This document shows, in pieces, positions 9,678 through 60,837 of a DNA stretch of 64,000 nucleotides. The position numbers and the translations under genes are program-made. How positions within the stretch are numbered: the first letter of the stretch is position 1; every line of letters begins with the position of its first letter. The notes under the pieces are model-generated. The model did not search any database and was not told where the DNA came from. It saw only the letters and a list, made by a program, of their open reading frames with translations. Origin of the DNA: an uncultured Fibrobacterota bacterium. Lineage in GTDB: Bacteria > Fibrobacterota > Chitinivibrionia > Chitinivibrionales > FEN-1185. Location: contig CAVWBU010000021.1 in the NCBI GenBank assembly GCA_963753345.1, positions 96,001-160,000 on the forward strand, in the 5' to 3' direction.

Positions 9678-10154
9678 GGGGGGATGTTTCCCCCTCGCTT
9701 CGGCCTCCTCGGCCTTTGGCCTGCGGTGTCCTCCGCTACCCCCTCCTGGGTAGCCGCCTTGACAAAGCAGTTGCCAGACCACACATTGTTGTGGCGGCAC
9801 CCGAGAAGAGTAGTTGAGAAGTTGAGGAGTTGAGAAGCTAACGCGTAGACGCGTTAACACGGTTACGTACTCATATTTTGGATGCCGATTGGCGCGAGAA
9901 GAAGTACTTGACAGAATAGACTTCCTTTGCCGCGCGCCAGGCCGGAACGGAGGCCGCGTTAGAACGTGGTGCCGCCCGGACCCGCCTTTTGTAGAGACGC
10001 AGCGGCGCTGCGTCTCTACAAAAGGAATAGGGCCGTGGCGGCCCGAGGCTGGAGGCCGACGACCCTTGGAAGCACCCGAAGGGGTGGACCGGAAGGAGAA
10101 CCGACCTCGGGTAAAGCCGCAAGGCATTGCGGCTTTACCCGAGGGAACGCCCAA
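9678..10154 (+). repeat. Bipartite structured intergenic repeat, copy A
   Basis: GGGGGA..TCCCCCTCGCT start, CCGCTACCCCCTCCTGGGT, GTTGAGAA octamers, CCGATTGGCGC, GGGAACGCCCAA end. Strand given is the putative folded strand. Confidence 0.9.
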
Positions 10155-10234
10155 TCTCATTTGTATCTCTTAAAGTTCAAGAAACAATCCAACCTTTTCC
10201 CCGCTCCCAAATCTAATATTATAAGGGCCGGTAT

Positions 10235-11941
10235 ATGGAATATCATCCTTTCTCGAATAACGGCGACGATTCCGCCGAATACCTCGCGCCGGACGAACCG
10301 GAAGGCAGGCTGCTTTCCGACGGCGAGTATGCACAGGCATTGACAGACCGTAACGATGTCTTTGCCATCGCAGGCGGGCACAGGCTGGCTGCAATCGAAG
10401 CGGTGGCATTGGCGGCGGGTGTGTTTTTTGGTCTGTGGCTCCACGCACAGCGGCTGAAAACTGTTGCACCGGATTTTCTCAGCTCAACGCAGAAAGAATG
10501 GACCGCGAGGCTGTTGCGCAGTAGGGAGATACAATTGCCGTCTCAGGCACTTGAGCAGGAAATGCCGGCGAGGGAAACTGCGGAGCTTGCAGCACCTGCT
10601 CTGCGATACGCGGACCGTGAGGCGATGAAGCGCGAGGTCCGACTGCCCAAGCCGGCTGCAATGCGCACTGCCGTAAAAGAATTGAAGTCCTCTTTGTCTA
10701 CAGAGCTCAAATCCGTAAGGGTCTCTGCGGTCGCCCGCCGGGAGCACGACACAGTGCAGGCGCTCCTGGAGAAAACAGTTGCAGAAAACGGGACTGCCAA
10801 TAATCAAGACACCGCACTTCCCGTGGGAGAGATAAGCAAGCTTATTGACCGGGGCAATGCCGTAAAGAAGTACGGCAACCGCGCAGAGGCGTTTAGCGCG
10901 TTCAGGCGGGTCTTGGCACATGATCCGCACAACGCCGCGGCTCTGGCCGGCGTCGGTGATTTATTTCTCTACACCGGCATCCTTGACTCATCGGCCGCGT
11001 TTTACAAGGCGGCAATTGCGGCAAACCCGCGCAATGCGGCCGCGCACAACGGGCTTGGTTCGGCGCTGTATTTCAACTCCACGCTTGTAACCAATCCGAA
11101 TTATGCCCGGCGCATGAACATTGCCGACCCCGAGCGGTACGCAAGAGCGCAGTACGACAGTGCGATTGCCGAATACACCGCCGCGATTTCTCTCGACAGT
11201 TCGCAGGTCCAGGCTCTCACCAACCGCGGCGTGCTTCGGGACATTAATGGCGACCGCCGGGCCGCGATTGAGGACTACACGCTCGCCCTGCGAATCAACC
11301 CGAAATGCGCCGATGCCTACAGCAAGAGGGCGGCCACCCTGAAGGCGCTGGGGAAATACAAGGACGCAATCGCCGATTACACCGCGGCAATCAATCTTGA
11401 CACCAGCTCGTACGAGTTCGACCCGAAAACCCACTTTGCAAATGCATACTTCGGCCGGGGGGTCGTGTTCTACAGGTCCGGCGACCTCGGCAGGGCGATA
11501 CGCGATTTTGACAGCGCTCTTGTGATCTCGCCGGACCATTCCCTTGTTATGATCAACCGGGCCGTCGCCTTGATTGACGAGAAGAAGTACGACGCTGCCG
11601 TTGCGGACCTTACCCGCGCGATTGCCCTGCTTTCGCCTCTTGAGTACGGCGGCGCACAGTATCTTGCCTGTTTACAACGGGGGAACGCGTATAAGGCGCT
11701 CGGTCAGTACGACAAGGCGATCGCCGATTACAATGCCGCTCTCGTGTCGAAGAATCTGGCCGCCCGGGCCTGCTGGAGGATCGCCGAATGTTTCTCACTC
11801 AAGAACGATGCCGATTCCGCCATTGCCTGGCTCAGAAAGTCCGCGGCGGCCGGGTTCAATGATTTTGGCGCCTGGCAAAGAGACAAAGCGCTTTCCCCAC
11901 TCTGGAACGCCAGGGAATTCAAGGAAATTGCCGGACAATAA
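10235..11941 (+). CDS. Membrane-anchored tetratricopeptide repeat protein
   Basis: N-terminal transmembrane segment and many TPR units (AIADYTAAI, AYSKRA, AYFGRG). Confidence 0.85.
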   Translation: MEYHPFSNNGDDSAEYLAPDEPEGRLLSDGEYAQALTDRNDVFAIAGGHRLAAIEAVALAAGVFFGLWLHAQRLKTVAPDFLSSTQKEWTARLLRSREIQLPSQALEQEMPARETAELAAPALRYADREAMKREVRLPKPAAMRTAVKELKSSLSTELKSVRVSAVARREHDTVQALLEKTVAENGTANNQDTALPVGEISKLIDRGNAVKKYGNRAEAFSAFRRVLAHDPHNAAALAGVGDLFLYTGILDSSAAFYKAAIAANPRNAAAHNGLGSALYFNSTLVTNPNYARRMNIADPERYARAQYDSAIAEYTAAISLDSSQVQALTNRGVLRDINGDRRAAIEDYTLALRINPKCADAYSKRAATLKALGKYKDAIADYTAAINLDTSSYEFDPKTHFANAYFGRGVVFYRSGDLGRAIRDFDSALVISPDHSLVMINRAVALIDEKKYDAAVADLTRAIALLSPLEYGGAQYLACLQRGNAYKALGQYDKAIADYNAALVSKNLAARACWRIAECFSLKNDADSAIAWLRKSAAAGFNDFGAWQRDKALSPLWNAREFKEIAGQ

Positions 11942-11988
11942 TTCTGTTGTAATAAGGCCGTTCCCCGCGTAATAGGAGACATCTAAGT

Positions 11989-12424
11989 GGGGGAAGTTTC
12001 CCCCTCGCTCCGGCCCGGCCGCGCAGCTTTACATACCGGTATTTTGGATATGCGCGGCCGGTCCTTCGCTACCCCCTCCTGGGTGCACCCCGAGAAAGTT
12101 GATTTGCGAGAAAGGTGCCTCGGTTGGGGGGCACCCGCGAAAAGCAGTTGAGAAGTTGAAATGAAGAAACGTTGAAAAGTAGGAAGAAGCCCGACCGATT
12201 TCTTGCGAATGCCGATTGGCGCAAGAAGAAGTGATTGACTGAATAGATCTCCTTTGCCGCGCGTTAGGGGCGACTGGAGGTCCCGCCATAGCGGGATGCC
12301 GCCCGGACCCGGCCCTGCGGGCCATAGGGCCGTGGTGGCCCGAGGCCAAAGGCCGAGACCGGAAGGAGAACCGCCCTCGGGAGGGGCCGCAATGCATTGC
12401 GGCCCCTCCCGAGGGAACGCCCAA
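11989..12424 (+). repeat. Bipartite structured intergenic repeat, copy B
   Basis: Same motif order as copy A; ends GGGAACGCCCAA. Confidence 0.9.
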
Positions 12425-12581
12425 TCTTTGTAATTAATCTCACGTTTGAAATATCTAATAAGTTTCGAGAAGCCCACACCGCTGCCAAAATTGTATATTG
12501 GTGCGTACCGGCCTTTCGCCGGTCAGTACAATTCTCGGGGCAGAGGGGGGCAAAAGACCCTTATCCAAGAAGGAATGACGC

Positions 12582-35017: not shown

Positions 35018-35648
35018 GGGGGAAGTATCCCCCTGGGGTGCCATGTCGAGACTCAAGGTCATGATTTAAATCTGATGTCTCGACATTGGCACCCACACCC
35101 CCTCCTGGGTGCACCCCAAGAGAGGGTAGCTGCAAGAATCAAGCACCTGTGTGGGGGCACCCGCGTAGTGCGGTTGTTGACGGAAGAGGAATTGGCTTGT
35201 TTGAATAGCACAGCCCGCGCATTCCCCGCGACTTGGCGCGGGGAATGCGGGCGAATATTTATTATTCTATTTCCTTAGCTATGGAAGATCCCCGCCACTT
35301 GGGGCGGGGTTCTTCAATCCACCACAACGTGGTGGAATATCCCAGCCCGGGGCAACGCCCCGGGAATACAAGGAGAACAAAGCACATTTCCCCTCTCCAC
35401 TTGTGGAGAGGGGTGGCCGCGACAGCGGACGGGGTGAGGCGACCGTTTGGCGCCAAAAGGTAATTGACTTAAAAGAATCCTTCCGCCGCGCGTTAGGTGG
35501 ACCGGAGGGTGAGCTGGAGCGAATTGCCGGCCGACCCGGCCGTCAGGCATAGGGCGGTCCGGCAACGAGGCGAACAGCCGAGCCCGCAGGGAGACCGACC
35601 CCATGGAGAGCCGCACGGCAGTGCGGCTCTCCATGGGGGAACGCCCAA
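35018..35648 (+). repeat. Bipartite structured intergenic repeat, copy G, with an expanded central region of stacked hairpins
   Basis: Arm 35018-35165, insert about 35200-35440, arm 35445-35648 ending GGGAACGCCCAA. Confidence 0.88.
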
Positions 35649-40907: not shown

Positions 40908-40920
40908 TATCTAAATACAG

Positions 40921-41243
40921 TTGGGCGTTCCCCCCTGAAGAGCCGCACTGCCGAGCGGCTCTTCAGGGGGGTCGGTTCCACCCCTCCGGGTGCTTCGAGG
41001 CGTCGTCCTTCCGGTCCACCCCTTCGGGTGCTTCTCCCTCGTCAGGGATTTCCAAGGGTCACAAGGGTCGTCGGCCTTCGGCCTCGGGCCATCTAATTGC
41101 AGAATGTAGATTGTAGAATGTAGATTTGAAATGCGAAGACCAACCGGAATGTTTTTTCAATCTACAATCATCAATCTAAAATCTACAATTAAGAGTCCGG
41201 GCGGCATCCCGCTTTGGCGGGACCTCCAGTCGCCCCTAACGCG
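40921..41243 (-). repeat. Structured repeat copy H, first arm (with nested inserts)
   Basis: TTGGGCGTTCCCC...GTCCGGGCGGCATCCCGCTTTGGCGGGACCTCCAGTCGCCCCTAACGCG. Confidence 0.88.
41094..41191. repeat. Inverted heptamer-array element (TAGATTG/CAATCTA) nested in copy H
   Basis: TAATTGCAGAATGTAGATTGTAGAATGTAGATTTGAAA ... TTTCAATCTACAATCATCAATCTAAAATCTACAATTA. Confidence 0.8.
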
Positions 41244-44843: not shown

Positions 44844-44896
44844 GTAAATGATATTGATTTTGGAGAATGTTAAATGAAAGAGGATTGATTTTAAGG

Positions 44897-44970
<74 letters not shown>

Positions 44971-44982
44971 CCAAAAATAAAA

Positions 44983-45059: not shown

Positions 45060-45133
45060 TTGCTTGGACGATAAAGATACTTTATTGAAGAACCCGGCTG
45101 CAAGCTGCGGGCTTGCGTTTTCCCGCTGAGCGG

Positions 45134-45418
45134 CTACGGATTCCTTCCCGTGGGGTTCCAGCTCTGCGCCGTGGTGAAGAGCAGCACGATAAACGCCATG
45201 GTACCTATGGCAAGCGCCACGAATTTCCCGTATTCAACTTTTCTCTTGACGATCTTGATCTTCCCGGCCGATCCCCGGCCGACCGTGTCCGCCGCGTGCC
45301 TGGAGGAGTCTGCGGCCAGGGAGTCGCGGCGCGGGGTAATCGGCGTTCCGAACGATATCTGGCAATAGCCCGGCCAAGCGATTGACGCAAGGATAAGAAA
45401 CGCCGCGAGCCGTCTCAT
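45134..45418 (-). CDS. Small hypothetical membrane protein
   Basis: Signal peptide plus C-terminal transmembrane segment; overlaps the gatB stop (ATGA coupling). Confidence 0.6.
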   Translation of the reverse strand: MRRLAAFLILASIAWPGYCQISFGTPITPRRDSLAADSSRHAADTVGRGSAGKIKIVKRKVEYGKFVALAIGTMAFIVLLFTTAQSWNPTGRNP

Positions 45419-47975: not shown

Positions 47976-48303
47976 CGCCGGTCGGCTCCTGGGGAGCCAG
48001 GAATTTTTCCGGGATTTCCTGCGCGGTCTGGGTCCCGGCTTCCAGATCCCTGATCCGTCTGTCTCTTTTGTGAATCGCGGTACGCAGGGTCACAAAATTA
48101 TACGCGGCAACGCCGAGTCCCACAATAAGGCCGAGGCCGAGGGCCCCCGCCACATAGGCCCACACCGGCAGGGCTTTGGTGTGATAGGTGAATATATGCG
48201 CCGAGACTTGGACCTGGAACTCCGGCTGCGAAAACGTAATGATGATGACGAAGGCCAGCGCGAACGACAGGAGGAACACCAGAAGCCACTTGACAAAAAC
48301 CAT
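47962..48303 (-). CDS. LapA (DUF1049)-like membrane protein
   Basis: Two transmembrane segments followed by a basic coiled tail (KRDRRIRDLE). Confidence 0.65.
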   Translation of the reverse strand: MVFVKWLLVFLLSFALAFVIIITFSQPEFQVQVSAHIFTYHTKALPVWAYVAGALGLGLIVGLGVAAYNFVTLRTAIHKRDRRIRDLEAGTQTAQEIPEKFLAPQEPTGDDSF

Positions 48304-48305
48304 GA

Positions 48306-49574
48306 TCACGTCCTTTCGCCGATAAGCGTCTTGCCCGTGCTTTTTACGATCCGCAGAGGTAAAATCGTTCCTGCCCGGCAGTCTTTGCAAGCGGCAAGGA
48401 CCTTTTTGCAACCCATGTCCTGTCCCATCCACAGTCCGTCTCTGCCTTCCTGCCTGCCGGTTAATAGCACCGGAAGCTCCCTGCCGATCATGGCGCCGTA
48501 GACCTCTTTTGTCATGGCCGTCTGCAGGCGGATGAGGCGGGCAAGCCTACCCTGCTTGACCGCGGCGGGAACATCGTCGGCCATGGAGGCCGCGGCGGTG
48601 TTGTCGCGCCGGGAGTAGGCGAACATGAACGCGGTTGTAAACCGCACGGTTTCAAACAGCGACAGGGTTCCCTCATACTCAGCGTCGGTTTCGGTGGGGA
48701 AGCCGACCATTGCGTCGGTGGTGATGTCGGCGTCGGGAAGGTGTTTGCGGATTGTGCCGATCCTGGCAAGGTAGTCGTCGCGCGAGTACCCGCGGTTCAT
48801 GAGCGAAAGAATGCGCGTGGAACCCGACTGCACCGGAAGGTGGATGTGCCTGCAGAGCTTCGGGAGTTCGGCCATGGTGCGGATGAGATCTTCGGAGCAG
48901 TCCTTGGGATGGCTTGTGGTGAACCGGATCCTGGCAATGCCGTCTATGGCGTGCAGGCGGCGAAGAAGTTGCGGAAAGCGTGTCACGCCGTCATGATACG
49001 AATTGACGTTCTGGCCCAGGAGCGTCACCTCGCAAACCCCTTTGTCAACCAGCGACAGGACCGTTTTCTCCACCGAGGCCGCGGGCAGGGAAACCTCCGG
49101 TCCGCGCACCTGCGGCACCACGCAGTAGGAGCAGCAATTGTCGCAGCCCCGCATGATCGGAACAAACTTGCTTACCGCGGATTCGGCCGCGCCCGCGGCC
49201 AGCGCGCCGGGAACGTCTGCGAGCGCCGAATCGATATTCTCGATGAACCGCTCGAAATCGCGTGCGCCTATCGCCAGATCAATTGCCGGGAAATCGCGCT
49301 TGAGCGAGCCGCCGAGGCGCTGCGCCATGCAGCCGACAACCCAGAGCCTGCGTTCTCGGCCGCCGCGCGCCTTGTGCGCCGAAAGCTCGGCGATGCGGGC
49401 CAGGGCGCGTTGCTCCGCGCGCTCGCGCACGCTGCACGTGGTGACCACGATGAGGTCGGCGTCGCCCGGGGTTTTAGCTTTTGCAAAGCCGCGGGAAAAA
49501 AGCGCTGACGCGAGCGCGTCGGCGTCGGCGACGTTCATCTGGCAGCCGAAGGTTTCGAAGAATACAAAAGGCAT
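48306..49574 (-). CDS. miaB: tRNA-i6A37 methylthiotransferase
   Basis: ETFGCQMN, TCSVRERAE, GCDNCCSYCVVP, LLGQNVNSY and HLPVQSGS motifs. Confidence 0.93.
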   Translation of the reverse strand: MPFVFFETFGCQMNVADADALASALFSRGFAKAKTPGDADLIVVTTCSVRERAEQRALARIAELSAHKARGGRERRLWVVGCMAQRLGGSLKRDFPAIDLAIGARDFERFIENIDSALADVPGALAAGAAESAVSKFVPIMRGCDNCCSYCVVPQVRGPEVSLPAASVEKTVLSLVDKGVCEVTLLGQNVNSYHDGVTRFPQLLRRLHAIDGIARIRFTTSHPKDCSEDLIRTMAELPKLCRHIHLPVQSGSTRILSLMNRGYSRDDYLARIGTIRKHLPDADITTDAMVGFPTETDAEYEGTLSLFETVRFTTAFMFAYSRRDNTAAASMADDVPAAVKQGRLARLIRLQTAMTKEVYGAMIGRELPVLLTGRQEGRDGLWMGQDMGCKKVLAACKDCRAGTILPLRIVKSTGKTLIGERT

Positions 49575-49600
49575 TTTCGTGGTTTCAATCTGTAAAGATC

Positions 49601-49815
49601 TGGGCGTTACCCCGCCTCGCGCTTCGGCGTGAGGCGGGGTCGGTCTTCTTCCGGGCTCGGCTGTTCGTCTCGTTGCCGGTCCGCCCTATGCCTTGCGGCC
49701 GGGCACCCCGTCGGGTGCTTCCAAGGGTCGTCGGCCGGCAATGCGCTCCACCGCACTTACCGTCGCCCCTAACGCGGCGGCAGACAATTGCTACTGGCAT
49801 TTTTTCGTGGCGCCG
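49601..49815 (-). repeat. Structured repeat copy I (first arm only)
   Basis: TGGGCGTTACCCC...GGGGTCGGTC..CTTCCGGGCTCGGCTGTTCG...CCCCTAACGCGG. Confidence 0.85.
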
Positions 49816-49965
49816 ACGATACTCTCGATTCAGGAAGAGATCAATGGATTCTTCTTTGGGTATCCTGAGTGTTGAGAATCAGAATTCAGGATTCGGCAAA
49901 TTACAGATGGATATATTTTGGGCGTCTCCAAGATCGATGAGAGATTTCATTACTTTCAACTTGAT

Positions 49966-50463
49966 TTATAGCAGCGCTTTCACAAAATGATATCCGAAAA
50001 GAATCACCAAAAGAGAGATATTCGTAAGTATCCCCGCCGCCACGTCGTCCATCACGATGCCAAGGCCGCCCTCGAGGTATTCCATGTTGTGGACGGGGAA
50101 CGGCTTTACAATATCGAAAAAGCGGAACAGGAAGAACCCGAGGATGATCGTCTTCACCGACAGCGGCACAAAGAGGAACGCCACGAGCTGGCCCGCGCAC
50201 TCGTCGATGATCACCCGCGACGGGTCGTCCTCGCCGAACACCTCCCGCGGCCGCGACGACACGAGCACCGAAAACGCGACGACAACAAGCGACAGCACCC
50301 ACAGGTGGGCGGGCGTTACGGCCGGGCCCTTTACGCACGCGAACCACCACAGCGCGCCGGCCGTGATGGCCGAGCCGATGGTGCCCGAGGCGAGGGGAAT
50401 GTAGCCGAGGAACAGAACCGAGGCCAGGGCTTTCTGGAGCCAGATGACGATTGGGTGTTTCAT
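49966..50463 (-). CDS. pgpA: Phosphatidylglycerophosphatase A
   Basis: ASGTIGS, DPSRVIIDE, FRFFDIVKPFP and GGLGIVMDDVAAG motifs. Confidence 0.93.
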   Translation of the reverse strand: MKHPIVIWLQKALASVLFLGYIPLASGTIGSAITAGALWWFACVKGPAVTPAHLWVLSLVVVAFSVLVSSRPREVFGEDDPSRVIIDECAGQLVAFLFVPLSVKTIILGFFLFRFFDIVKPFPVHNMEYLEGGLGIVMDDVAAGILTNISLLVILFGYHFVKALL

Positions 50464-50492
50464 GATTATTTCCTATTTTTGTAATTAAAGAC

Positions 50493-50940
50493 TTGGGCGT
50501 TCCCCTCTCTTCGCTCGGGTCGGTTCTCCTTCCGGTCTCGGCCTTCGGCCTCCGGCCGCCTCGGCCCTAGGCCGCTGTAGCGGCGGGTCCAGGCGGCACC
50601 GCGCTCCAGCGCGGCCTCCAGTCGCCCCTAACGCGCAGCAGAGGAATTCTATTCAGTCAAGTTATATCTATGCGCCAACCCAAGTTTCTATTGAGATTGT
50701 TTAGATTTTCTTCTTGAACTACTCAGCTCCTCCACTTTTCAACTCTTCAACGATTCAACTTCTCAACTTCTCAACATCTCAACTCTATTTCTCGGTGCCC
50801 CCGCAGCCGAAGATTCTTTCTTGCAAATCAACTCTCTAGGGGGCTACCCACGAGGGGGTGTGGGTGCCAATGTCGAGACGTTGGATTTTTGGCATTGGTT
50901 TTGAGTCTCGACATGGCACCCCAGGGGGACCCTTCCCCCA
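50493..50940 (-). repeat. Bipartite structured intergenic repeat, copy J
   Basis: Complete copy; terminal module of the same type as copy G (GGGTGCCAATGTCGAGAC...GTCTCGACATGGCACCC). Confidence 0.9.
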
Positions 50941-50945
50941 CCAAA

Positions 50946-51560
50946 TTACTCATTCTTCTTATCACCATATGAAATTTCCACCCTCTCATGAAGCGCCTGA
51001 TTGAGCGTCATCTGATCTATGTATTCCAGCTCGGTTCCCGCGGGCACGCCGCGCGCGAGCAGCGTGATCTTGAGGTGCATGCCGGAAAAAATGCGGGCCA
51101 GGTACAGGCAGGTGGTCTCGGCTTCCGCGCTGGCCCCGAGCCCGAGGATAAGCTCCTTGACGCCGCCCGCGTCGAGCCGCGCCTTCAGCTCCGAAAGGTG
51201 CAGCTTGTCGGCGGTAATGCCGTTGATGGGCGAGAGCACGCCGCCGAGCACATGGTACAGGCCGCGGAAGATCCCGGACTTTTCGAACACGAGCACGTCC
51301 TGCGGTTTTTCCACCACGCAGATCACCGACGAATCGCGCGAGGTTGACGAGCACACGTCGCACAGTTCGGCAGTGCCGTAGTTGAAGCACCGTTTACACA
51401 CGGTGATCTTCGATTTGATGCCGGCGATGCACTGCGACAGGGTGTCGAGCTCGGCCTGGGGCCGCTCCAGAAGATACAGCGCGAGCCGCAGCGCGGTCTT
51501 CCTGCCGATGGTGGGCAGCCGGCAGAGCGCGTCAACGAGGCTGTCGAGCGGTTCGATCAT
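50946..51560 (-). CDS. recR: Recombination mediator RecR
   Basis: LPTIGRKTA.RL, C4 zinc finger, ICVVE and YHVLGGVLSP motifs. Confidence 0.95.
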   Translation of the reverse strand: MIEPLDSLVDALCRLPTIGRKTALRLALYLLERPQAELDTLSQCIAGIKSKITVCKRCFNYGTAELCDVCSSTSRDSSVICVVEKPQDVLVFEKSGIFRGLYHVLGGVLSPINGITADKLHLSELKARLDAGGVKELILGLGASAEAETTCLYLARIFSGMHLKITLLARGVPAGTELEYIDQMTLNQALHERVEISYGDKKNE

Positions 51561-51591
51561 GGGTTCATCCCTTGCAGCGCAACACAAGACT

Positions 51592-51683
51592 CACCACAGA
51601 GTCACAGAGAACACACAGAGAAATGCCAGGAGAGCCAGAAGTTGATTGTCCTACCGTCAACGGACAACCGTCAACTGTCAACA
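51592..51683. repeat. Short tandem arrays (CACAGAG-containing units; TCAAC heptamers) between recR and ybaB
   Basis: CACCACAGAGTCACAGAGAACACACAGAG and CCGTCAACGGACAACCGTCAACTGTCAAC. Confidence 0.65.
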
Positions 51684-51694
51684 ACGATTCTTTA

Positions 51695-52018
51695 TTACGG
51701 CCCTAACCCCAGTGCTCCCAGATCCATCCCCTGGGTGAGGCTGCCGAGCGCGGCGTTCGACTGTTCCTTCACCTTTTCCTGCGCGTTCTTGAACGCGGCG
51801 ACAATGAGGTCTTCGAGCATCTCCACGTCGTCGGGGTCCACCACTTCGGGGTTGATGGCAATCCCCGCGCAGTCGCCGCCGCCGTTCATGGTCACCTTGA
51901 CCATGCCGCCGCCGGCGGTGCCTTCGAAAGTCTGTTTGGCCAGTTCCTCCTGCGCCTTTACCATCTGCGACTGAAGCCGCTGCGTCTGTTTGAGAAGTTT
52001 GTTGAGGCCCTTCGGCAT
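51695..52018 (-). CDS. ybaB: YbaB/EbfC nucleoid-associated protein
   Basis: GTAGGGMVKVT and DPDDVEMLEDLIVAA; lies between dnaX and recR. Confidence 0.94.
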   Translation of the reverse strand: MPKGLNKLLKQTQRLQSQMVKAQEELAKQTFEGTAGGGMVKVTMNGGGDCAGIAINPEVVDPDDVEMLEDLIVAAFKNAQEKVKEQSNAALGSLTQGMDLGALGLGP

Positions 52019-52050
52019 GCTTTGCTCCTTTGGTAAGTGGAACGGCGGGG

Positions 52051-53775
52051 TTACAGCACCGTTCCGTCGAAAATGTCAAGCACCGTTCCTATGATGGGCT
52101 CGCGGCCTATTTCGTCCTTTATCGAAAGCGACGTTCCCGCCGCCGCCGAAGGTGCCGGCGAGGTCTGCGCGGCCGGTGTGTCGGCCGGCTCAATGGTGAT
52201 GTGCAGTGCGACGTCGGTCTTGACGAATTCGCCGAGTTTCTTCTGAATCTCGTCGCGATTCTTCTTCTTTGTCACCTCGCCGAACTGGAAACGGCATGCC
52301 GCCGGGAACCGCAGCTCTATGGAATTTGCGGTCGACGAAACAATATACGCGACCGACAGGTGATAGCCGAACGCGGGCCAGTCGTGCACCAATTGTTCCA
52401 TGAACCGCGGCCACCGATCCTGCAGGTTTCCTTCGACCGGCGGCGCGGCAGGGGAGACCGCCTCTTCGCCCATGTCGATGTTCGCCTCGCCATTGTCGGG
52501 CGCCGCGTCGGTCTCAAGCACCGGCTCGGCCAGGGTCAGGCCGGGTTGTGAAATTTTTTTTTTATCCGGTACCATGGTGCCCGGCGCCGCAACCGCTGGA
52601 GCCGCCGAAGGCGGCGATGACTGCGGCGCGGCGGCCTGTGGCGCGCCGCCGAGCGATTCCAGAAGCGTTGACAGCGCAACCGTGTCGTCGAGGTGGACAA
52701 GCTTAAGGAGCAGAAGCTCCACAAGGAACCGCGGGAAGTCGGAGAACCGCAGGTCGCGCTCGGTCTTCCGCACGAGCTCGGCCATGCGCAGGAGCGTCTC
52801 CTCGGAAAACGCCGATGCGCGCTTTGCAAATGCGCCGGCCGCGTCGGCGGGAAGGTCGATGCGCGGGTTGTTCATCACGCCGGGCAGGCGGCAGAACAAA
52901 AGCGTCCGCAAATGGTCTTCGAGCCCCATCACGAACTCGCGCAGGTCGAACCCGCGCGACAGCAGGTCTTCCACTGCGGCGACGGCGGGGGAAGGGTTCT
53001 TTTCCGCAACGGCCTTCATGATGGTGTCGTACAGCTCCGTGTCGATGATGCCGAGCACGGTGCGGACCGCGGCCTCATTAATTGACTCATGCGAATACGA
53101 ATACACCTGGTCGAGCAGGCTTAAAGCGTCGCGCATGCTGCCTTCGGCCTTGCGTGCGACAATCGCGAGCGCGGCCTTGTCGAACGCGATGTTCTCGGAC
53201 GTGCAGATGTGCGCGAGCCGCGCGGTAATCTGCTCGGCCGATATCCGCCTGAAATCGAAGCGCTGGCAGCGCGAATGGATGGTGGCCGGTATTTTCTGCG
53301 GCTCGGTGGTGGCGAAGATGAAGATCACGTTTTCGGGCGGTTCTTCGAGCGTCTTGAGCAGGGCGTTGAACGCCGACTTGGACAGCATGTGCACTTCGTC
53401 GATCACGTAAATGCGGTGCTTGCCGCCCATCGACGAATACCTTACGTTCTCGCGGATCTCGCGGATGTCGTCCACCGAGTTGTTCGAGGCGCCGTCTATT
53501 TCCAGCACGTCGAAGCTTGACCCGTTGATGATGTTCTTGCACGGTTCGCATTCGCCGCAGGGCTTGGGCGTGGGGCCCTTGTCGCAGTTGAGCGCGCGCG
53601 CCAGGATGCGGGCCGTGGTGGTTTTGCCCACGCCGCGCGTGCCCGTAAAAATATAGGCATGCGCCACGCGGTTCTTCTCGATGGCCTTGATAAGCGTCTG
53701 CGTGATGTGCTCCTGGCCCACCACGTCGGCGAAACTTTGAGGACGCCATTTGCGGGCAAAAACCAAGTAACTCAT
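52051..53775 (-). CDS. dnaX: DNA polymerase III subunit gamma/tau
   Basis: ARKWRPQSF, GTRGVGKTT, EIDGASN, IDEVHMLS and SRC motifs. Confidence 0.97.
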   Translation of the reverse strand: MSYLVFARKWRPQSFADVVGQEHITQTLIKAIEKNRVAHAYIFTGTRGVGKTTTARILARALNCDKGPTPKPCGECEPCKNIINGSSFDVLEIDGASNNSVDDIREIRENVRYSSMGGKHRIYVIDEVHMLSKSAFNALLKTLEEPPENVIFIFATTEPQKIPATIHSRCQRFDFRRISAEQITARLAHICTSENIAFDKAALAIVARKAEGSMRDALSLLDQVYSYSHESINEAAVRTVLGIIDTELYDTIMKAVAEKNPSPAVAAVEDLLSRGFDLREFVMGLEDHLRTLLFCRLPGVMNNPRIDLPADAAGAFAKRASAFSEETLLRMAELVRKTERDLRFSDFPRFLVELLLLKLVHLDDTVALSTLLESLGGAPQAAAPQSSPPSAAPAVAAPGTMVPDKKKISQPGLTLAEPVLETDAAPDNGEANIDMGEEAVSPAAPPVEGNLQDRWPRFMEQLVHDWPAFGYHLSVAYIVSSTANSIELRFPAACRFQFGEVTKKKNRDEIQKKLGEFVKTDVALHITIEPADTPAAQTSPAPSAAAGTSLSIKDEIGREPIIGTVLDIFDGTVL

Positions 53776-53895
53776 AATAATTTTAGATTTTAGAATGTAG
53801 ATTGACGATTTAGAATACAGTACATCAGGCGTTCATCCTCGAATTGGAATACAGATTCCTTGTCCAACAAAAATAGATTATTCCCCATATATATT

Positions 53896-54303
53896 TCATT
53901 GCCCAATATGCTGGGAAGGATTTCTGGGTTTTGATTGTTTCCTGACTGTATTTATTGATGATACAATAATAGCGAGAATTTGATTCGCCTCATCGGCCAG
54001 TTGCATTACCCTGTTTTGCGGCAGAAAATTTCCTTCGGCAAGCAATTCCATCCAATAGGCAGACTCATCAGCCTCTTCTTCCACAATCTTCAATTTTGCA
54101 ATAAAATCCGCTCTTGATCTTGCTCTGCAAACCGCTCTGTAATTGGCACCAACGGAAGTCCCACTACGAAGCAATTGACGGCCCAATACCTGCGCGGACG
54201 GGTTCCGGGGCAATTCGCTGAACAACCTTATGATCTCAAGCGCAAAGGTCTTGGTGCGCAGTTTCATGGCTTCGGGAGTATACGCCACAGCAAGGTCTTC
54301 CAT
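53896..54303 (-). CDS. Four helix bundle protein (23S rRNA IVS-protein/bAvd-like fold)
   Basis: RTKTFAL...QLLRSGTSVGANYRAVCRARSRADFIAKLKIVEEEADESAYWMELL; AT-rich; flanked by heptamer arrays. Confidence 0.9.
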   Translation of the reverse strand: MEDLAVAYTPEAMKLRTKTFALEIIRLFSELPRNPSAQVLGRQLLRSGTSVGANYRAVCRARSRADFIAKLKIVEEEADESAYWMELLAEGNFLPQNRVMQLADEANQILAIIVSSINTVRKQSKPRNPSQHIGQ

Positions 54304-54378
54304 TAAAAAGGGAATGAACGATAAGTAACTGGACTTTATAAATCTACAATCTACAATCTTCAATCTACAATGGTAAAA

Positions 54379-54482
54379 GCGGGGCCAAGTTTACCTGCGG
54401 CACACTCAGTATCCGTTTACCGTTGCTCCCTTCCGGGCCTGGCGGGGTTCACAGACTGTCGTTGCGCAGGGCCTGGCCCCAC
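54379..54482 (-). ncRNA. ffs: Signal recognition particle RNA (small, 4.5S type)
   Basis: GTGGGGCCA...GTGAACCCCGCCAGGCCCGGAAGGGAGCAACGGTAA...TGGCCCCGC long hairpin with GGAA loop and SRP helix-8 motif; canonical position upstream of dnaX. Confidence 0.93.
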
Positions 54483-54601
54483 AGTTAATTGTAGAATGTA
54501 AATTGTAGATTGTAGATTGAAATTCCGGAGACCTCGTTTCCCGGCGATGCGAAGCGTGCAAAAAATAGCATTTGCGCCGGGCCGAGCAAACGGTTGATTG
54601 C

Positions 54602-57600
54602 TCAATGCTTCATATTCTTGTTCAGCATTTCCGAAAGCTCCGCCAGGGTGAAGGGTTTGGAAATGCTTGCGGTAAAACCGTAGTCTGCGGGATTTTTCAT
54701 CACCGCATCATCGGTGTACCCGCTCGCAACAAAGATCGGGATCTCTTTGTTCAAATTCCGGATTTTTTTGACGGTTTCGATTCCGCCCATGCCTCCGGCG
54801 ACAGTGAGATCAAAAATCATCCCGCTGCATTGTCGTTTGGCACGCATTTCGCCGCCGTAGAAATCAACGGCCGCTTCGCCGTCATTCCTGCACACCACGG
54901 TGTATCCCATCGATTCGAGCATTTGTCGAAGCGTGTCCCGTACTACTTCTTCGTCGTCCATCACAAGGATTGTGCCGCTGCCCTTGTGCCTGCCGGTCGC
55001 GACTGTCTCCTTGACAACGGATTCCGGGGAAGCGGGCAGGTACACATGAAACGTGCTGCCCTTGCCCTGTTCGGATTCGACCTCGATGCAGCCTTCATGA
55101 CGGGTGATGATTGAATAACAGGTGGCGAGCCCGAGGCCGTGCCCCTTTGTTTTTGTCGTGTAGAACGGGTCGAAAATGCGGGGTATGATGTCCTTTGGTA
55201 TGCCGATGCCGTGGTCTTTGATTGACACCTTCACATAATCGCCCTTGGCCAGCGGGGGATGTTCCTTTTCTCCAAAAGAAATATTCCGGGCGGTTATTTC
55301 TATGTCCCCGCCGTTCGGCATGGCCTGCTGCGCATTGATGACGATGTTGTCGATTACCTGGCCGATCTGGTCCTTGTCGATATTGCACGGCCACAGGTTT
55401 TCGGGCAGGGAAAATTTGCACGAAATAGTCGATCCGCTGAGCGCGAAACGTGCGGTATCCTCAATGAACGGCGTCAAGGGTGTTATCTTTCTGGAGCGGG
55501 AAACCGCCCTTGGCAAAGGTCAGGAGCTGCAGGGTGAGCGACCGCGCACGGTTCATGGCCGCAAGCGTTGCCGCAAGGTATTCGGCGGTCTTCGCATCCT
55601 TCGATGAGGAACGGGCCAGGTCGATGTAACCGAAAATGCCGGTAAGCAGGTTGTTGAAATCGTGCGCAATGCCGCCGGCGAGCACGCCGAGCGAGTCGAG
55701 TTTCTGCTTCTGGTTAAGCTGGTCTTCGAGCGCCTTGCGGACTTCATCGGCCTTTCTGCGTTCGGAAATGTCTTCAATCAGGAACAAAAGGTGGTTTTCC
55801 CCGCCTGCGGAAAAAGGGGCGAACGAGGTGTTGAACCATGCGGTTTTCCCGAACGACGAGATGCTGCGGATTTCCTGTGTGACTGGTTTCCCTCCTGTCA
55901 ATGCACGGTCGGCACTTTCCAGAAGGCCATCGCGTTTCCAGGTTCCAAGGCTCCGGAAATTCTGCGCGAGCAGTTGTTCCGTCGTGCCGCCGATGATTCT
56001 CGCGGCCGCCTGGTTTGCCGATACGCATTCCCCCGATGCCTTGTAGACAAGCATTCCCACCGGAGACGATTCCAGTATCATTTTGTTGAAGGAAAGCGCC
56101 TCCATAATCTCCTGCTGGGCATGCTGCACGGCCTCCTGGGCCTGCTTGCGCTCGGTGATGTCGCGCACAATGCCCTGAAACCTGCCGTCTCCCAGCATTT
56201 TTCCGCTTATTTCGGTATAGACAACCGATCCGTCTTTCCGGCGCATTCGTCTTTCGCTTATGACCGTTTCTACGGACAGAAGTTCCTTGAATTTGATCGG
56301 GGAGGATGTGATTTCTTCGGGAAGCAGCAAGTCTTTCATTCCAAGGTGCAATATTTCCTCGCGTGAATAGCCGAGCATGGAAGTCGCCCGAACATTGGCA
56401 TCGGTGTAGTTCCCGTCCTTGATCGGAAATGAATATTGCGTCCGACGCCTGCTCCATGAGCGTGCGATAGTTGCTTTCGCTGTTCCGCAGCTCTTGCTCC
56501 ATGCGTTTGCGTTCGGTGATGTCTTGGACTATGGACAGGATGCACGCCCGGTGGCCCAGTCTGATCACCTGGGCGGAAAGCATCACCGTTTTGAAATCGC
56601 CCTTCTTTCCCTGCAACGTCGTTTCAAGGCCGTTAACGGGGCGGCCCTCGCGGAGAGCCGTTAGCATCCGCTGCCGGTCCTTTTCGTCAACCCACAATTT
56701 CAGGCTGAGCGTTGAGCTGGCGAGTGATTCTTCCCGGCTGAACCCCGACAGGGCGGTGAACGCGTCGTTGACCTCGATAATCCTGCCATCGTCCAAGTTT
56801 CCAATCATGTAGGCATAGGGAGAAGTCTTGAACGCCGTGGAAAGCGTTCCTCGCTCTCGCGCAGCGCAATCTCCGCCTGCTTGCGCGCGGTGATGTCGCG
56901 CGTGACGGCCACAAACGATACGGGCTTGCCCTCCGCATCCGTGATTGCCGTCGCGCTCAGTTCCCCATCAAATTGAGAGCCGTCCTTTTTGACAAAACGA
57001 TATTCAATATTGTTGACGAGCTTTCCCCGTCAGAGTTTTCTGCAAGTTTGAACCGGCGCGTTCATGTTCGTCCGGCGGAAACAGATCGAACGCACTTTTT
57101 CCGATCAGGTCTTCCGGACGTTCATACCCGTGCATGAGCGCAGTCTGGCGGTTGCACATGAGAATTCTGCCGCTCAGGTCGGTCTGCGTGATCGCGTCGG
57201 GCGAGGACTCGACCAGGGCGCGATAACGTATTTCGCTTTCTCTGAGCGCTTCTTCCATGCGTTTGCGCTCGGTGATGTCGCGGATAGCGGTCACCCTGAC
57301 CGTGCGCCCCTGGTAGTTTATTGATCTGCTACTGAGTTCGCCATTGAAAGTCGCGCCGTCCTTTCTCAGCCCTGTCGCTTCATACGGTTTTTCATAGCCG
57401 GAAAGAAAATTGTTGCGGACCAAGTCACGCGACTGGGGCGCGGCAAGGGTTAGAACGTTCATACCGATTAATTCCGAAAGTTTATAGCCGAACAGGTCGG
57501 CCATGGCCTGGTTCGCATCCAGAATCAGGCCTTTATCGTGAATGGCAATTCCTTCGAAACTGGCCTGGGCCAAACGGCTGAAACGTTCTTTACTTTCTTT

Positions 57601-57993
57601 AAGCCCATCCTCGGCCTGCTTGCGCTCGGTGATATTTTCAACCATGATGACAAAGTGTTCTTTCTCGGGGGAATGCACCACCATGTTCAGCCACAACTTC
57701 AGCCGTTCTATGGGTCGCTCAAAATGCTCGGGCCTGCCGGACAGTGCCACCCGTCCGTAGATTGCAAACAGTTCCTTGTTGGATTGCCAGACGCCGGGAA
57801 GGAGTTCCGTGACCTTTTTTCCAATTACATTTCCGAGTCCGGTCAATTTTCCGTATGCCTTGTTGACGTCAAGATAGATGAAATCGATTGGTTTGCCGGA
57901 CTTGAAAATCATCTTGCAGTGAGCAAAGCCGATGGGCATGTCTTTGACAAGGCGTTGATAGCAGTCGGCATGGCTGTCGCTCTCTTTCTTCAT
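54602..57993 (-). CDS. Multi-PAS hybrid histidine kinase/receiver, split by about 4 frameshifts
   Basis: Consecutive ORFs 57004..58074, 55774..56808, 55461..56378 and 54602..55516 give repeated PAS/PAC (DITERK), GGIAHDFNN, GHGLGL and receiver MDDE...KPF. Confidence 0.85.
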
Positions 57994-58291
57994 GGGTGTG
58001 ATCCTTTCCCCCCGGTCCGTTGACGGGCGGGATTTTGAGGACCAGTTTTGTGTTTTTCTTCTTTTCGCTGCCATGAGAATGTCGGCACTCCATGGGGCGC
58101 CGCCGCCTTTACCGCGACGCGCCCCGTCTCCTAAAAGTCAAAGTCCCTTAGACAAACTAAGTATTGCACAAAAGCAACGCAAATTTACAACATTTTTCGT
58201 TTTTGACCTATTAATCCGGTCATTATACTGCAACCGCTCGCCCATAGCATGTCGAAAGGTGAACGAAAAGTGCTGAAATCTAGACGGAATA

Positions 58292-58326
58292 GCCGTTCGT
58301 GGCGAGCTTGTCGAACCATGAACGGC
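58292..58326. repeat. REP-like imperfect palindrome (GAGCTTGTCGA family)
   Basis: GCCGTTCGTGGCGAGCTTGTCGAACCATGAACGGC; related cores at 31725-31737 and 44595-44680. Confidence 0.6.
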
Positions 58327-58467
58327 AAGAGATAGACTTCTTCAACACCCTGTTAGGGCATCGCACAGATGCGAAAATCAAATCGAAGGCCGGGTTTCTC
58401 GATGTAAATTTCCTTTTCGGTCCTTGAGGGTGCAGAGCGTTTTGTCGTCGATGTCAATGGAGGAACG

Positions 58468-59301
58468 GTGAACAACAAAGTGAAGATCGAGCTCGGAGAG
58501 GTCCAGAGAACGCTGCTTATCCCTTTGTTCGGCCGCGCGCTGGAGTACGAGAAAGAGCACCCGCTTATCAAGGATAGGTACGCTTATAAGATTGTAAAGA
58601 GGCTTGATTACAATTTTGCCGCCGGGTTCAAGCAGGCGCCCACGCAGTTTACGACAAACAGCGCCATTCGCGCCTATCATCTTGACAAGGCGGTCGCGGA
58701 TTTCATAGACCGGCATCCCGACGGCACTATCGTGAACATCGGAGCGGGACTCGATACCACGTTTCACCGGCTCGACAACGGCACGATATTCTGGTATGAT
58801 CTCGACCTTCCGGATTCGATCGACCTGCGCCGGAAGCTTATCCCGGAAGGCGAACGGAATAAGTGTGTCGCAAAGTCGGTGTTCGACCGGACATGGTTCC
58901 GCGACATCAAAGAACGGCGCTCAAAGGTTTTCTTCATGGCCGGCGGGGTGCTCGTCTATCTGAAGGAAAAAGAAATTAGAAAACTGTTCGTTGACTTGAT
59001 AGAGGAGTTTCCCGGCAGTGAAATTATGTTTGACATTTATTCAAGAATATTCGCGTGGTTAAGAAACCATGCGCTTGCGCAACGGCGGAAGGACAGGTTG
59101 GAACTGTTTGTTCGCTGGCAATGGGGCGTCAATTCGGCAAAAGCGATTGCCCGATGGAGTGACAAAATACGAGTTCTTGATGAATTTCCCTATTATTCAA
59201 GAATTGATCTCGAAGAATATTGGGACGAGAAGGTTCTTGCTCCGCTCAAGTTTATGAACTTCTTTAAAGTGATGAAGATGGTGCGGCTTGGGCTCGGATA
59301 A
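58468..59301 (+). CDS. Class I SAM-dependent methyltransferase (LCM/TcmP-like)
   Basis: TLLIPLFGRA, VNIGAGLDT, WYDLDLPD and AGGVLVY motifs. Confidence 0.88.
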   Translation: MNNKVKIELGEVQRTLLIPLFGRALEYEKEHPLIKDRYAYKIVKRLDYNFAAGFKQAPTQFTTNSAIRAYHLDKAVADFIDRHPDGTIVNIGAGLDTTFHRLDNGTIFWYDLDLPDSIDLRRKLIPEGERNKCVAKSVFDRTWFRDIKERRSKVFFMAGGVLVYLKEKEIRKLFVDLIEEFPGSEIMFDIYSRIFAWLRNHALAQRRKDRLELFVRWQWGVNSAKAIARWSDKIRVLDEFPYYSRIDLEEYWDEKVLAPLKFMNFFKVMKMVRLGLG

Positions 59302-59314
59302 TAAATCAAGAATA

Positions 59315-59346
59315 TTGGGCGTTCTCCTGATTGTGTAGAGGCGCAG
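59315..59346 (-). repeat. Truncated stub (M) of the structured repeat
   Basis: TTGGGCGTTCTCC...TGTAGAGGCGCAG matches the first about 35 nt of copy E. Confidence 0.6.
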
Positions 59347-59382
59347 TCCATTTCCCTATCTAAATCATTATTTCATCTTCAA

Positions 59383-60330
59383 TTATCTATTTTGTAAATA
59401 AACCACAAATATCCCTCTCCCTGCTTCTCTTCCTACATCAAATTGCCTCGTCATTAATCTGCTCTTATACCACACCAGCTTCCCACCGATATCATAAACA
59501 TAAACATCGCAAGGCATCTTAAAAGTCATTGGAACTGTAATTCTTCCCGCCACCGACACAAAAGTTCCATGATGTAATGAAACTGAAGAAGGAACCGAAT
59601 AGTTACCTTTTACAATCTTTGTCGTCGGTTCCATGCTCGACGTCGAGTCCAGGCTCATGGTGTCGATCCTTGCATGGATGGTGTCGACAACGGTGTGGTT
59701 GAGTGCCACGAAGCCGAAACCCGGCGCGGTGCAATTATTTGTAAAGCACCCGGCAATCGAGATGGCGGAGCACTGGCCGGAGAACAGGGAATCGTACGCG
59801 AGGGAGATATGCGAGTCGCTCGCCCGCAGCGCGGTTCCGGGTATGCCTTTTGCGCCGCAGTAGCAGACCATGGCGTTCTGGTAGCTCACGCCGTACCCTC
59901 CGCCGTCGCCGCCCCGTATGGTGCATTCGAAAAAGGCCACGGTCGAGCTGTCGATAATGATTGCGTCGCTTCCGTCTTTCCCGTCGAGGGCCGGCACGCT
60001 CTTGCAGCTGTTGTTGTTGTTGCCGCTAACTCCCTTTGCCCCGGCAAACCGCAGCATTTCCGCCGAGCACGTGCTGTTGTCAATGAGCAGCACTTTACTG
60101 ATGATTGTCGGGACGGAGGAGGAAGCGCCTTGCACCACAAGGTTGACTTTGTCCACTATCCTGATGGTGTCCAAGTCCTTGACCGTATCGCAGATTATGG
60201 TATCATTGCTTCCCGATGCGTTGATTGCGGTTTGCAGCAGGGGATAGTCCTGCGGGACGTGATAGGTGTTTGCGAGGATCGCGGCGGGTAGTGCTAGTAT
60301 CGCCATACAATATAGGTATAAACCTCGCAT
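59383..60330 (-). CDS. Secreted Cys/Gly-rich protein with T9SS type-A-like C-terminal domain
   Basis: Signal peptide; TYHVPQDYPLLQTAINA; C-terminal VYVYDIGGKLV...GIFVVYL. Confidence 0.6.
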   Translation of the reverse strand: MRGLYLYCMAILALPAAILANTYHVPQDYPLLQTAINASGSNDTIICDTVKDLDTIRIVDKVNLVVQGASSSVPTIISKVLLIDNSTCSAEMLRFAGAKGVSGNNNNSCKSVPALDGKDGSDAIIIDSSTVAFFECTIRGGDGGGYGVSYQNAMVCYCGAKGIPGTALRASDSHISLAYDSLFSGQCSAISIAGCFTNNCTAPGFGFVALNHTVVDTIHARIDTMSLDSTSSMEPTTKIVKGNYSVPSSVSLHHGTFVSVAGRITVPMTFKMPCDVYVYDIGGKLVWYKSRLMTRQFDVGREAGRGIFVVYLQNR

Positions 60331-60420
60331 TAATGGCCTCCATGGATTTGGTTGCGTGATATTACTCAATTATATCCTGGTTCCGGCAGATTGTCGATGA
60401 TATCAAAATAAAGAAAAGAG

Positions 60421-60837
60421 TTGGGCGTTCCCCTCGCTGCACTCGGGTCGGTCCACCCCTTCGGGTGCTTCCAAGGGTCGTCCCTCCGGTCTCGGGCTCG
60501 CCCTCGGGCCGCCTCGGCCCCTATGCCGGCGTACCGGCGGGGTCCGGGCGGCATCCCGCCATAGCGGGACCTCCGGTCGCCCCTAACGCGCGGCAGAGGA
60601 AGTCTTATCAGTCAACTACTTTATCTTGCGCCAATTGGTATCCGGAAATCGGGGCTTCTTCAATATGTTTTCTACTTTTCAACTGCTCCTCGTGGGTGCC
60701 GCCACAACAATGCATAGTCTTGCAGCTGCTTTATCAAGGCGGCTACCCTAGAGGGGGTAGCGCAAGACCGGCGCGGAATGCGGTGAACTTTGATGATGTG
60801 AGCGCCGGGCCGCAGCGAGGGGGAACCTTCCCCCGCC
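60421..60837 (-). repeat. Bipartite structured intergenic repeat, copy K
   Basis: Complete motif set. Confidence 0.92.

Follow-up and report, generated by a model that had tools for sequence, protein, structure and literature searches.

Copies of the unit in the window

We analysed a stretch of 64,000 nt, called here the window, from an uncultured Fibrobacterota bacterium (assembly GCA_963753345.1, contig CAVWBU010000021.1, positions 96,001 to 160,000 of the forward strand). In this window a 27-nt unit interrupts several copies of a large structured repeat. The insert is real, and in its behaviour it ranks with the smallest mobile DNAs known. Positions are those of the window unless a contig is named.

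The large repeat has 13 heads in the window, and 11 full copies could be delimited. Host copy K (60423..60589, plus strand) carries the canonical unit without mismatches at 60454..60480 (plus), and host copy A (9956..10152, minus) carries it, again without mismatches, at 10060..10086 (minus). The unit of host copy I (49602..49775, plus) lies at 49704..49730 (plus) and has one mismatch, its loop being CGTC and not CTTC. Host copy H (40923..41242, plus) is interrupted twice. At 40979..41005 (plus) direct reading reveals a variant with the tail CTTCGAGGCGTCG, where positions 19 and 23 are swapped from C-G to G-C; it differs from the canonical unit at four positions and hence escapes a search that allows three mismatches. 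At 41017-41070 one unit is nested in another, in the arrangement 18 + 27 + 9 nt. The first 18 nt of an outer canonical unit (41017..41034, plus, read directly) break off after CTTC. An inner unit of 27 nt follows (41035..41061, plus, exact match), with the stem TCCCT/AGGGA and TCA at the end of its tail, and then come the last nine nucleotides of the outer unit (CAAGGGTCG, 41062..41070, plus). Joined together, the 18 and 9 nt rebuild the canonical 27-mer exactly. The number of copies expected by chance in the window is zero both for the canonical 27-mer, as estimated from shuffled sequences, and for the inner variant. A covariance-model scan of the window produced no unit copy beyond those listed.

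An earlier note on this DNA had placed the insert at these coordinates and at three different positions of the repeat, with TC behind it in five cases and with one copy nested in itself. Matching and direct reading confirm all of these observations. TC stands directly 3' of the unit in all five cases, the inner unit between the 18 and 9 nt is exactly 27 nt long, and the three positions, named sites a, b and c, are non-homologous junctions in the host copies.

Among the 11 full copies, site a (GGTCGGTYC^TCC, with the insertion point marked by ^) is filled in two (40979 and 60454) and empty in six. Site b (CCGGTC^TCGGCC) is filled in two (10086 on the minus strand, and 41017, where it holds the 54-nt nest) and empty in seven, and site c (GGCCGGG^TCGGCCGGC) is filled in one (49704) and empty in one. 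By site mapping, copy K has site a filled and site b empty between 60491 and 60492; copy I has site b empty between 49656 and 49657 and site c filled; copy A has site a empty between 10098 and 10097 and site b filled; and copy H has sites a and b filled. Two further copies serve as references. The copy at 50495..50637 (plus), for which a fold was predicted as well, has sites a (between 50526 and 50527) and b (between 50537 and 50538) empty, and that at 35490..35646 (minus) has sites a (between 35593 and 35592) and c (between 35535 and 35534) empty.

The large repeats have other peculiarities. An A+T-rich insert of about 110 nt (41093-41200), composed of inverted short repeats of the TGTAGA/TCTACA type, separates the first arm of copy H from the tail of the large repeat. 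A perfect hairpin of about 35-50 nt (..TGTAGAGACGCA...TGCGTCTCTACA..) is found in two separate places of the large repeat, at 9985-10040 in copy A (minus) and as the first hairpin of many host copies, for example 29109-29299, and looks like another portable module. At one metagenome locus (L189) the 27-mer sits in the loop of this hairpin.

Census in the genome and exact boundaries

The genome (G000 in the labels below, its contigs being given C numbers) is a metagenome-assembled genome (MAG) of 4.5 Mb in 55 contigs, 94% complete. The earlier note had proposed to search it for the 27-mer and its structural variants. A search with at most three mismatches found 83 copies. A structural pattern, consisting of a stem with at least four of five pairs, a 4-nt loop and the tail motif, matched 93 of the 110 hits of the tail motif; one of these is a chance match, which leaves 92 real copies. 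The same pattern gave one match in the genome read backwards. A covariance model gave 117 matches at E<=1.

The 92 copies fall into several classes of sites: 29 at site b, 16 at site a, 15 in a hairpin loop of another repeat, family B, 11 at site c, three nested, one at a site b2 and 17 elsewhere. Family B is distinct from the large repeat, and its insertion point is GGGGGAAGTT^TCCCCC. The majority of host copies are empty. Filled and empty forms were observed in at least seven unrelated repeat families. Among these are six further unrelated families in which filled and empty paralogs could be compared over about 70 nt of matching flank on each side; some of the insertions there lie inside a stem strand, and in one case an inverted unit lies inside another unit. 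Unit variants correlate with the site.

When the 27 nt are removed, the resulting 16-nt empty junction (8 + 8) is present elsewhere in the genome, letter for letter, for 69 of the 92 copies, and within one mismatch for 85. If both boundaries are slid by 1 nt, the number of empty junctions falls to 24 and 14, and other shifts give at most 11. Cutting out 24, 26, 28 or 30 nt instead leaves no more than 10. The match of junctions peaks at exactly 27 nt, and therefore the boundaries of the unit are exact. No duplication of flank letters is observed at sites a, b and B, in agreement with the earlier claim of a precise insertion without target duplication, which holds in this genome. Thus the unit comes and goes as a whole of exactly 27 nt, without target duplication and at many unrelated sites; its occurrences neither share one homologous ancestral position nor have variable boundaries.

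An open-frame test for copies in genes of this genome was uninformative, as G+C-rich repeats are open in many frames, and the repeat context was used instead.

Several peculiar arrangements were seen in the course of the census. A 28-nt double hairpin (TCCCTCTTCAGGGA + TGCCCGAAGGGGCA) is inserted in the stem of TACCC-type 27-mers, between GGG and TAC, as a second tiny unit nested in the first; its loci, in strand-specific coordinates, are C26:98712-98766 (plus), C36:16930-16985 (minus), C18:66398-66450 (minus) and C19:8614-8680 (minus). Some large repeats are chimeric or truncated exactly at a 27-mer (C6:14326-14560, plus; C34:49243, minus; C32:171293, minus; locus L036). Such breaks join a 5' part of subfamily A2 to a 3' part of A1, a family-B 5' part to A1, unique DNA to a 3' part of A2, or the left flank of site a to the right flank of site c, and the 27-mer seems to be a recombination point in these chimeras. 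Finally, most copies with site c filled (e.g. C42:47807, C47:203423, C35:68178) have, immediately behind GGCA, an additional insert of some 70 nt whose first letters are CAAGGCAAGAGACACAATAATGAAGCGCGAAGCGC. This suggests that a host sub-lineage has spread with the site-c unit plus this insert. Copy I of the window has site c filled and lacks the insert.

Shape and conservation

In the unit a 5-bp stem closing a 4-nt loop is followed by YTT, by a mini-helix of 2 bp that closes a loop of 3 nt, and by TCG. Among 21 distinct variants in the genome, 97% of the stem cells are paired, and three of the five stem pairs show compensatory changes (C-G to U-A; A-U to C-G or G-C). In the 2-bp helix, formed by positions 18-19 with 23-24, the pair 19-23 swaps from C-G to G-C in six of the 21 variants. 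The covariation score was equalled by none of 500 shuffles. The co-varying hairpin that the earlier note had read from the nested pair is therefore found among the 21 variants as well. An alternative fold, pairing positions 4-8 with 20-24 (the loop with the tail), was rejected for want of covariation.

A lone unit folds barely more stably than its shuffles (z from -0.7 to -1.6). The host large repeats are predicted to be strongly structured, and sites a, b and c map to small loops or helix junctions of the predicted host folds, so that the unit adds a helix and leaves the host helices intact. In the nested pair the two hairpins are predicted to fold side by side. At gathering scores, Rfam 15 matched only two tRNAs and the signal recognition particle RNA in the window, and the unit had no match; among 14 context loci searched at E<=1 there was one chance match, away from the unit.

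Variation between host copies and between related genomes

At site b the units are 99.0% alike, compared with 85-86% for the adjacent 13 nt on each side. On a tree of 261 host copies, 26 of them filled, the filled state at site b needs 23 changes; the null expectation is 25.25 (standard deviation 0.86), and 39 of 1000 shuffles were as low as 23. Each of the five host subclasses includes filled copies (13 of 95, 6 of 35, 2 of 4, 2 of 77 and 1 of 41), and this table is robust.

Five orthologous loci differ between this genome and its relatives by the presence of the unit. At C24 ~207540 there is a clean 27-nt gap here, and a metagenome relative has the unit in a family-B loop behind the same gene. 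C32 ~18260 is empty here, and another metagenome relative has the unit in a stem. At C16 ~257140 the 11 nt that separate sites a and b are replaced by the unit in a relative. The ortholog of copy A in relative G001 (C149:2733-3016) is plain and unit-free, and that of copy H in relative G002 (C19:26230-26370) is plain with all three sites empty. The unit is thus far more uniform than the surrounding host sequence, and it differs between orthologous loci.

At the loci of copies A and H the head, tail and flanks of the repeat are kept, and the interior is of another subfamily, A1 here as opposed to A2 in the relative. It follows that entire interiors have been converted or replaced, and that exchange among host repeats is frequent. 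In relatives G001, G002 and G004 there is no large repeat between the two genes that border locus I, the gaps being 2-10 nt long (region compared, 49000-50300); the whole large repeat at this locus is a lineage-specific insertion. Locus K has no clean ortholog among relatives G001-G005. Parts of 41300-49500 are present in 13 sequencing runs, and none of the runs listed is registered as RNA. Four of their assemblies covering 40800-60700, considered as contigs only, either end at the repeats or bridge them; the loose ends are paralogous, and no form with the 27 nt left out is listed among them, although breaks at the repeats hide alleles.

Since variants correlate with site, we infer that probably some 15-20 primary insertions stand behind most of the 92 copies, the rest being due to repeated hits at preferred sites and/or gene conversion.

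Distribution in other genomes and metagenomes

With at most two mismatches the unit was found in all seven other genomes of the same family, in 1 to 48 copies (48 in G001), and in none of 33 genomes from other families of the order. In an exact-match scan of one genome per species there were 51 loci, of which 48 are in MAGs labelled Chitinivibrionales, Fibrobacterota or Fibrobacteres. The remaining three belong to two MAGs labelled Myxococcales and Polyangiaceae. There the unit resides on long contigs of 62-65% G+C, in a different repeat of about 250 nt with inverted ends. The ends of the latter repeat resemble TAGTACTACTTGGTCA, and all five of its copies seen (L077, L080 and L082 in G041; L076 and L079 in G042) contain the unit, one of these units being decayed.

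A variant starting with TCCCCC was found in six of 301 sampled genomes of the Myxococcales-labelled phylum, with 69 copies in one of them (G158). G158 has nested units too, inserted at CTTC^CAAGGG, where copy H of the window also has its nest.

A looser pattern scan of metagenome contigs, soil and peat being among the sources, gave at least 124 loci and at least 128 matches. Among the matches listed there are new stem variants, the commonest being TCCCCC..GGGGA, and the G+C content of the contigs varies from 0.37 to 0.75. The contexts in this list include unique DNA, tandem copies (L084, L114, L137), runs of the short repeat CGGGCA and, at six loci, the CGTC loop of another unit. Hence occurrence outside the large repeats, which the earlier note had raised, takes the form of other repeat families in this genome and of unique DNA elsewhere.

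Nine of the 128 matches were dropped as not belonging to the element, since they represent a conserved coding motif (FDPWKDP on the reverse strand) with only three of the five stem pairs. At these loci (L106, L118, L143, L157, L161, L178, L180, L181, L198) the motif matches the tail of the unit letter for letter. We treat it as a coincidence, yet it bears a striking likeness to DPWKSP, which is the unit read in antisense.

Insertions in genes

The unit is open in all six frames, and its 27 nt make nine codons. In other organisms it is found in frame inside genes, a possibility mentioned in the earlier note. One such unit is in a UvrA fragment, at a point where solved UvrA structures show a 10-residue gap. 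Another is in a carboxylesterase (PF00135, E 4.6e-50), and a third in a PSP1-domain protein, just behind the matched domain. An open frame similar to Y2 (IS91-type) transposases contains up to four in-frame 27-mers in both orientations (L210-L212, L207, L211). Four genomes of the Myxococcales-labelled phylum (G343, G168, G119, G318) share these insertion contexts, and it is plausible that the Y2-like gene is a vehicle for horizontal spread of the unit. The same unit family, then, extends to another phylum and to in-frame positions within genes.

Target sites

For statistics of targets we used 108 distinct contexts, leaving out tandem, nested and main Chitinivibrionales-repeat contexts. The flanks share on average 2.16 letters with the unit's own ends, compared with 0.79 in the null model (standard deviation 0.10, maximum 1.20, 1000 trials), and at least four letters are shared in 18 of the 108 contexts, with 2.6 expected. 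The overlap ranges from 0 to 8 nt and is nil in 14 of the 108. In the UvrA and carboxylesterase genes the 5 nt GGTCG are common to the left flank and the end of the unit. Over all unit variants, 33 of the 108 contexts have CG at the end of the left flank, and 47 have TC at the start of the right flank. In 20 of 132 contexts the insertion point is spanned by a perfect host stem of 6 bp or more; the null model gives a mean of 3.1 and a maximum of 10.

The commonest form of the unit outside this genome starts with TC and ends with CG. Therefore an insertion of this form at CG^TC is indistinguishable from that of a 23-nt unit with a 4-nt duplication. As a general rule, a fixed CGTC target duplication of 4 nt was rejected: by a hand tally both halves are present in only a fifth to a quarter of TCCCCC-type contexts, and neither at the main sites here.

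Comparison with known elements

Small dispersed repeats (SDRs) named SDR1-8 were reportedly described by Elhai et al. in 2008 (Genome Res 18:1484) in Nostoc punctiforme and relatives, with a subgroup of cyanobacteria as their reported range. They are of the same size class, 21-27 nt (here 27 nt in 92 to 117 copies), and their hairpins are kept by compensatory changes (here in three of five stem pairs and in pair 19-23). They are said to be exactly present or absent without target duplication, to which the 69 of 92 empty junctions and the orthologous differences correspond here, to reside inside other small repeats or mini-transposons and in tandem short repeats, as the unit does in CGGGCA runs, and to nest in copies of themselves. 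Unlike SDRs, the unit is hosted, by label, by Chitinivibrionales/Fibrobacterota and Myxococcales/Polyangiaceae and not by cyanobacteria; moreover, phyla share an identical unit, and the unit also lies in frame within genes, neither of which is known to have been reported for SDRs. At most the unit is of the same kind as SDRs, as opposed to the same family. The reference lists of PMC3116915 and PMC3733652 cite Elhai 2008.

A classical miniature inverted-repeat transposable element was rejected, as there is no duplication at sites a, b and B and the flank overlap varies from 0 to 8 nt.

Rickettsia palindromic elements are selfish palindromic DNA tolerated in frame in protein genes, and are about 100-150 nt long. 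The unit resembles them by its in-frame presence in genes, and differs in being only 27 nt (nine codons) long. These elements are mentioned in PMC3733652.

The repetitive extragenic palindromic (REP) sequences and their doublets forming hairpins (REPINs), mobilised by REP-associated tyrosine transposases (RAYTs), are also short dispersed hairpins with co-varying stems and a patchy, lineage-specific abundance (PMC3116915, PMC3733652). Some of them, according to PMC3733652, lie inside other palindromes and in genes such as uvrA. Unlike them, the unit has no GTAG tag in the aligned variants, its stem is only 5 bp, and four carriers as well as this genome have no RAYT gene. Its copies are mostly single, otherwise tandem or nested, and are not the inverted doublets that replicate as REPINs, inverted pairs having not been systematically counted.

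In PMC3733652 (Di Nocera et al. 2013), CGTC-tagged REPs are described as having a stem of 8-9 bp that starts with A-T pairs, a loop of 4-5 nt, a terminal CGTC and a short CCA tail, and no transposase dedicated to them was found there. CGTC is tied to the unit too, as the loop of many variants and across the right junction, where a CG end meets a TC flank. The stem of the unit, however, is G+C-rich and only 5 bp long, and its tail measures 13 nt, so membership in this class was rejected. A full-text search of the literature for the letters of the unit, supplements being outside it, returned only unrelated primers and tRNA sequences, with no printed description.

Possible mechanisms

The 27-mer is probably a tiny mobile element without genes, of the kind represented by the cyanobacterial SDRs, and moved by an activity acting in trans. 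This activity would insert folded single-stranded DNA of the unit, reading the hairpin by its shape and the conserved tail by its sequence, and unpaired spots in or beside other hairpins would be its preferred targets. An intermediate with joined ends, circular or tandem, may recombine at look-alikes of its own junction, CG^TC, and the CGTC loop of the element itself would be one such target.

A number of points weigh against this interpretation. Searches for Y1 and Y2 transposases found no candidate for the moving enzyme. The main sites in this genome (a, b and family B) lack both a CG^TC target and microhomology, so they are not explained by joined ends. Every one of the 92 copies here is embedded in repeats, with unique flanks nowhere, and most of the copy number could be due to hitch-hiking and gene conversion. 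The tree used for site b is built on 110 nt downstream of the site, and is short and poorly resolved. The percentages of paired stem positions are partly built in, as the pattern demanded at least four of five stem pairs and, in the metagenome scan, the inner three were fixed beforehand. The MAGs are classified by their record titles only. Lastly, insertion events were not seen directly, and it is we who infer the direction of change, gain as against precise loss.

A bolder version, which we consider possible and rather doubtful, is that a single 27-nt family, letter-identical in two phyla, spreads horizontally, for instance in IS91-like genes and small repeats, via hairpin-directed joining of single strands at CG^TC.

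The earlier note had suggested an HUH/RAYT-type or a templated mechanism. Templated copying would require no enzyme: a nascent strand stalled at hairpin-rich repeats would change over to another copy or to a tandem pair, copy one 27-nt period and switch back via short homology. Junction microhomology is indeed enriched in other lineages, GGTCG cases included, the insertion points are in or beside hairpins, the tandem copies at L084, L114 and L137 could act as templates, and the subfamily switches of orthologous host repeats point to frequent exchange among copies. However, the 14 contexts without microhomology and the three main sites here have exact boundaries nevertheless, whereas template switching usually leaves variable end points; because boundaries are exact even without homology, we favour the trans-acting activity. 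Moreover, the conserved tail and the stem co-varying across phyla suggest recognition by a factor. We consider templated copying unlikely, microhomology speaking for it in other lineages and not at the main sites here. The HUH mechanism would make the unit a REP-like hairpin moved by a transposase of the Y1 (RAYT or IS200/IS605 TnpA) or Y2 (IS91) type. A hairpin with a conserved flanking motif, the lack of target duplication, hairpin targets and biased flanks would all fit; there is one Y2_Tnp gene in this genome (C26:285763-286341), and, in the Myxococcales-labelled phylum, Y2-like genes of some MAGs contain units. However, PF01797 (Y1) was found neither in this genome nor in the carriers G001 (48 units), G158 (69 units), G318 and G168, and of five other carriers only G002 has it. 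PF04986 (Y2) is present in three of eight genomes of the family with the element and in 15 of 33 genomes of families without it, and so does not track the unit across these 41 genomes; on the same counts a passenger or derivative of an IS91-type element was rejected. Nor does any of 13 loci around Y1 and Y2 genes, with about 1.5 kb of flank each, hold a unit, and at L256 there is only a similar hairpin without the tail, so the unit-flanked transposase gene that the earlier note had pointed to was not found at these loci. The units in Y2-like genes are read through in frame, as in other genes. A GTAG tag is missing from the unit. An HUH transposase is therefore very unlikely to be the mover.

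If the unit were a functional site, such as a protein-binding or RNA-stability hairpin, kept by selection, its spread would reflect usefulness, and the tail near-invariant across phyla, the stem varying only in compensated ways and the higher conservation of units than of flanks would follow. Selection would not, however, create exact 27-nt insertions in UvrA, a carboxylesterase and a transposase gene, and fails to explain self-nesting or the patchy, burst-like copy numbers (1 to 69; six of 301 genomes in one phylum); with no Rfam match in addition, we regard this as quite improbable. Spread through RNA, with the unit copied from RNA and returned to DNA, has reportedly been proposed for cyanobacterial SDRs. 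It would agree with the folded shape kept by compensatory changes and with the strongly structured host repeats. In this case half-changed stems should pair U.G, but they are mostly C.A (CACCC..GGGTA in at least seven copies, TACCC..GGGTG in two), and such spread seems very doubtful indeed. The unit could also be an optional helix of the large repeat, shuffled by homologous recombination and without mobility of its own. The confinement of the 92 copies here to repeats, the correlation of variants with site, the chimeric repeats joined exactly at the unit (C6:14417, C34:49243, C32:171293) and the subfamily switches at orthologous loci are in line with this. It is hardly credible, however, for a unit that occupies three non-homologous sites, at least seven other unrelated repeat families and itself, and it is contradicted by the different repeat in another phylum, by unique DNA and by in-gene copies.

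Significance of the family

The family of the unit is new, belongs to a known and poorly understood kind, and is more widely spread than the window alone shows. How elements too small to encode anything move without the usual signatures of transposons has been a question since the cyanobacterial SDRs. The present family offers a larger and more tractable data set, with hundreds of sites whose empty forms are known and two recurrent points of self-insertion. It also has measurable target biases (hairpins, CG^TC), burst-like copy numbers, and carriers among Myxococcota, including one nearly closed genome. The numbers of sites, the target biases, the copy bursts and these carriers make it feasible to look for the responsible gene by phylogenetic profiling and to search directly for junction reads.

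For annotation, the unit matters in that it reshapes a high-copy structured repeat, makes chimeric repeats, and adds nine-residue loops to proteins such as UvrA. If the reading of horizontal spread were true, the unit would rank with the smallest mobile DNAs that spread in this way, and would be a natural editor, giving structured repeats an extra hairpin or proteins nine extra residues.

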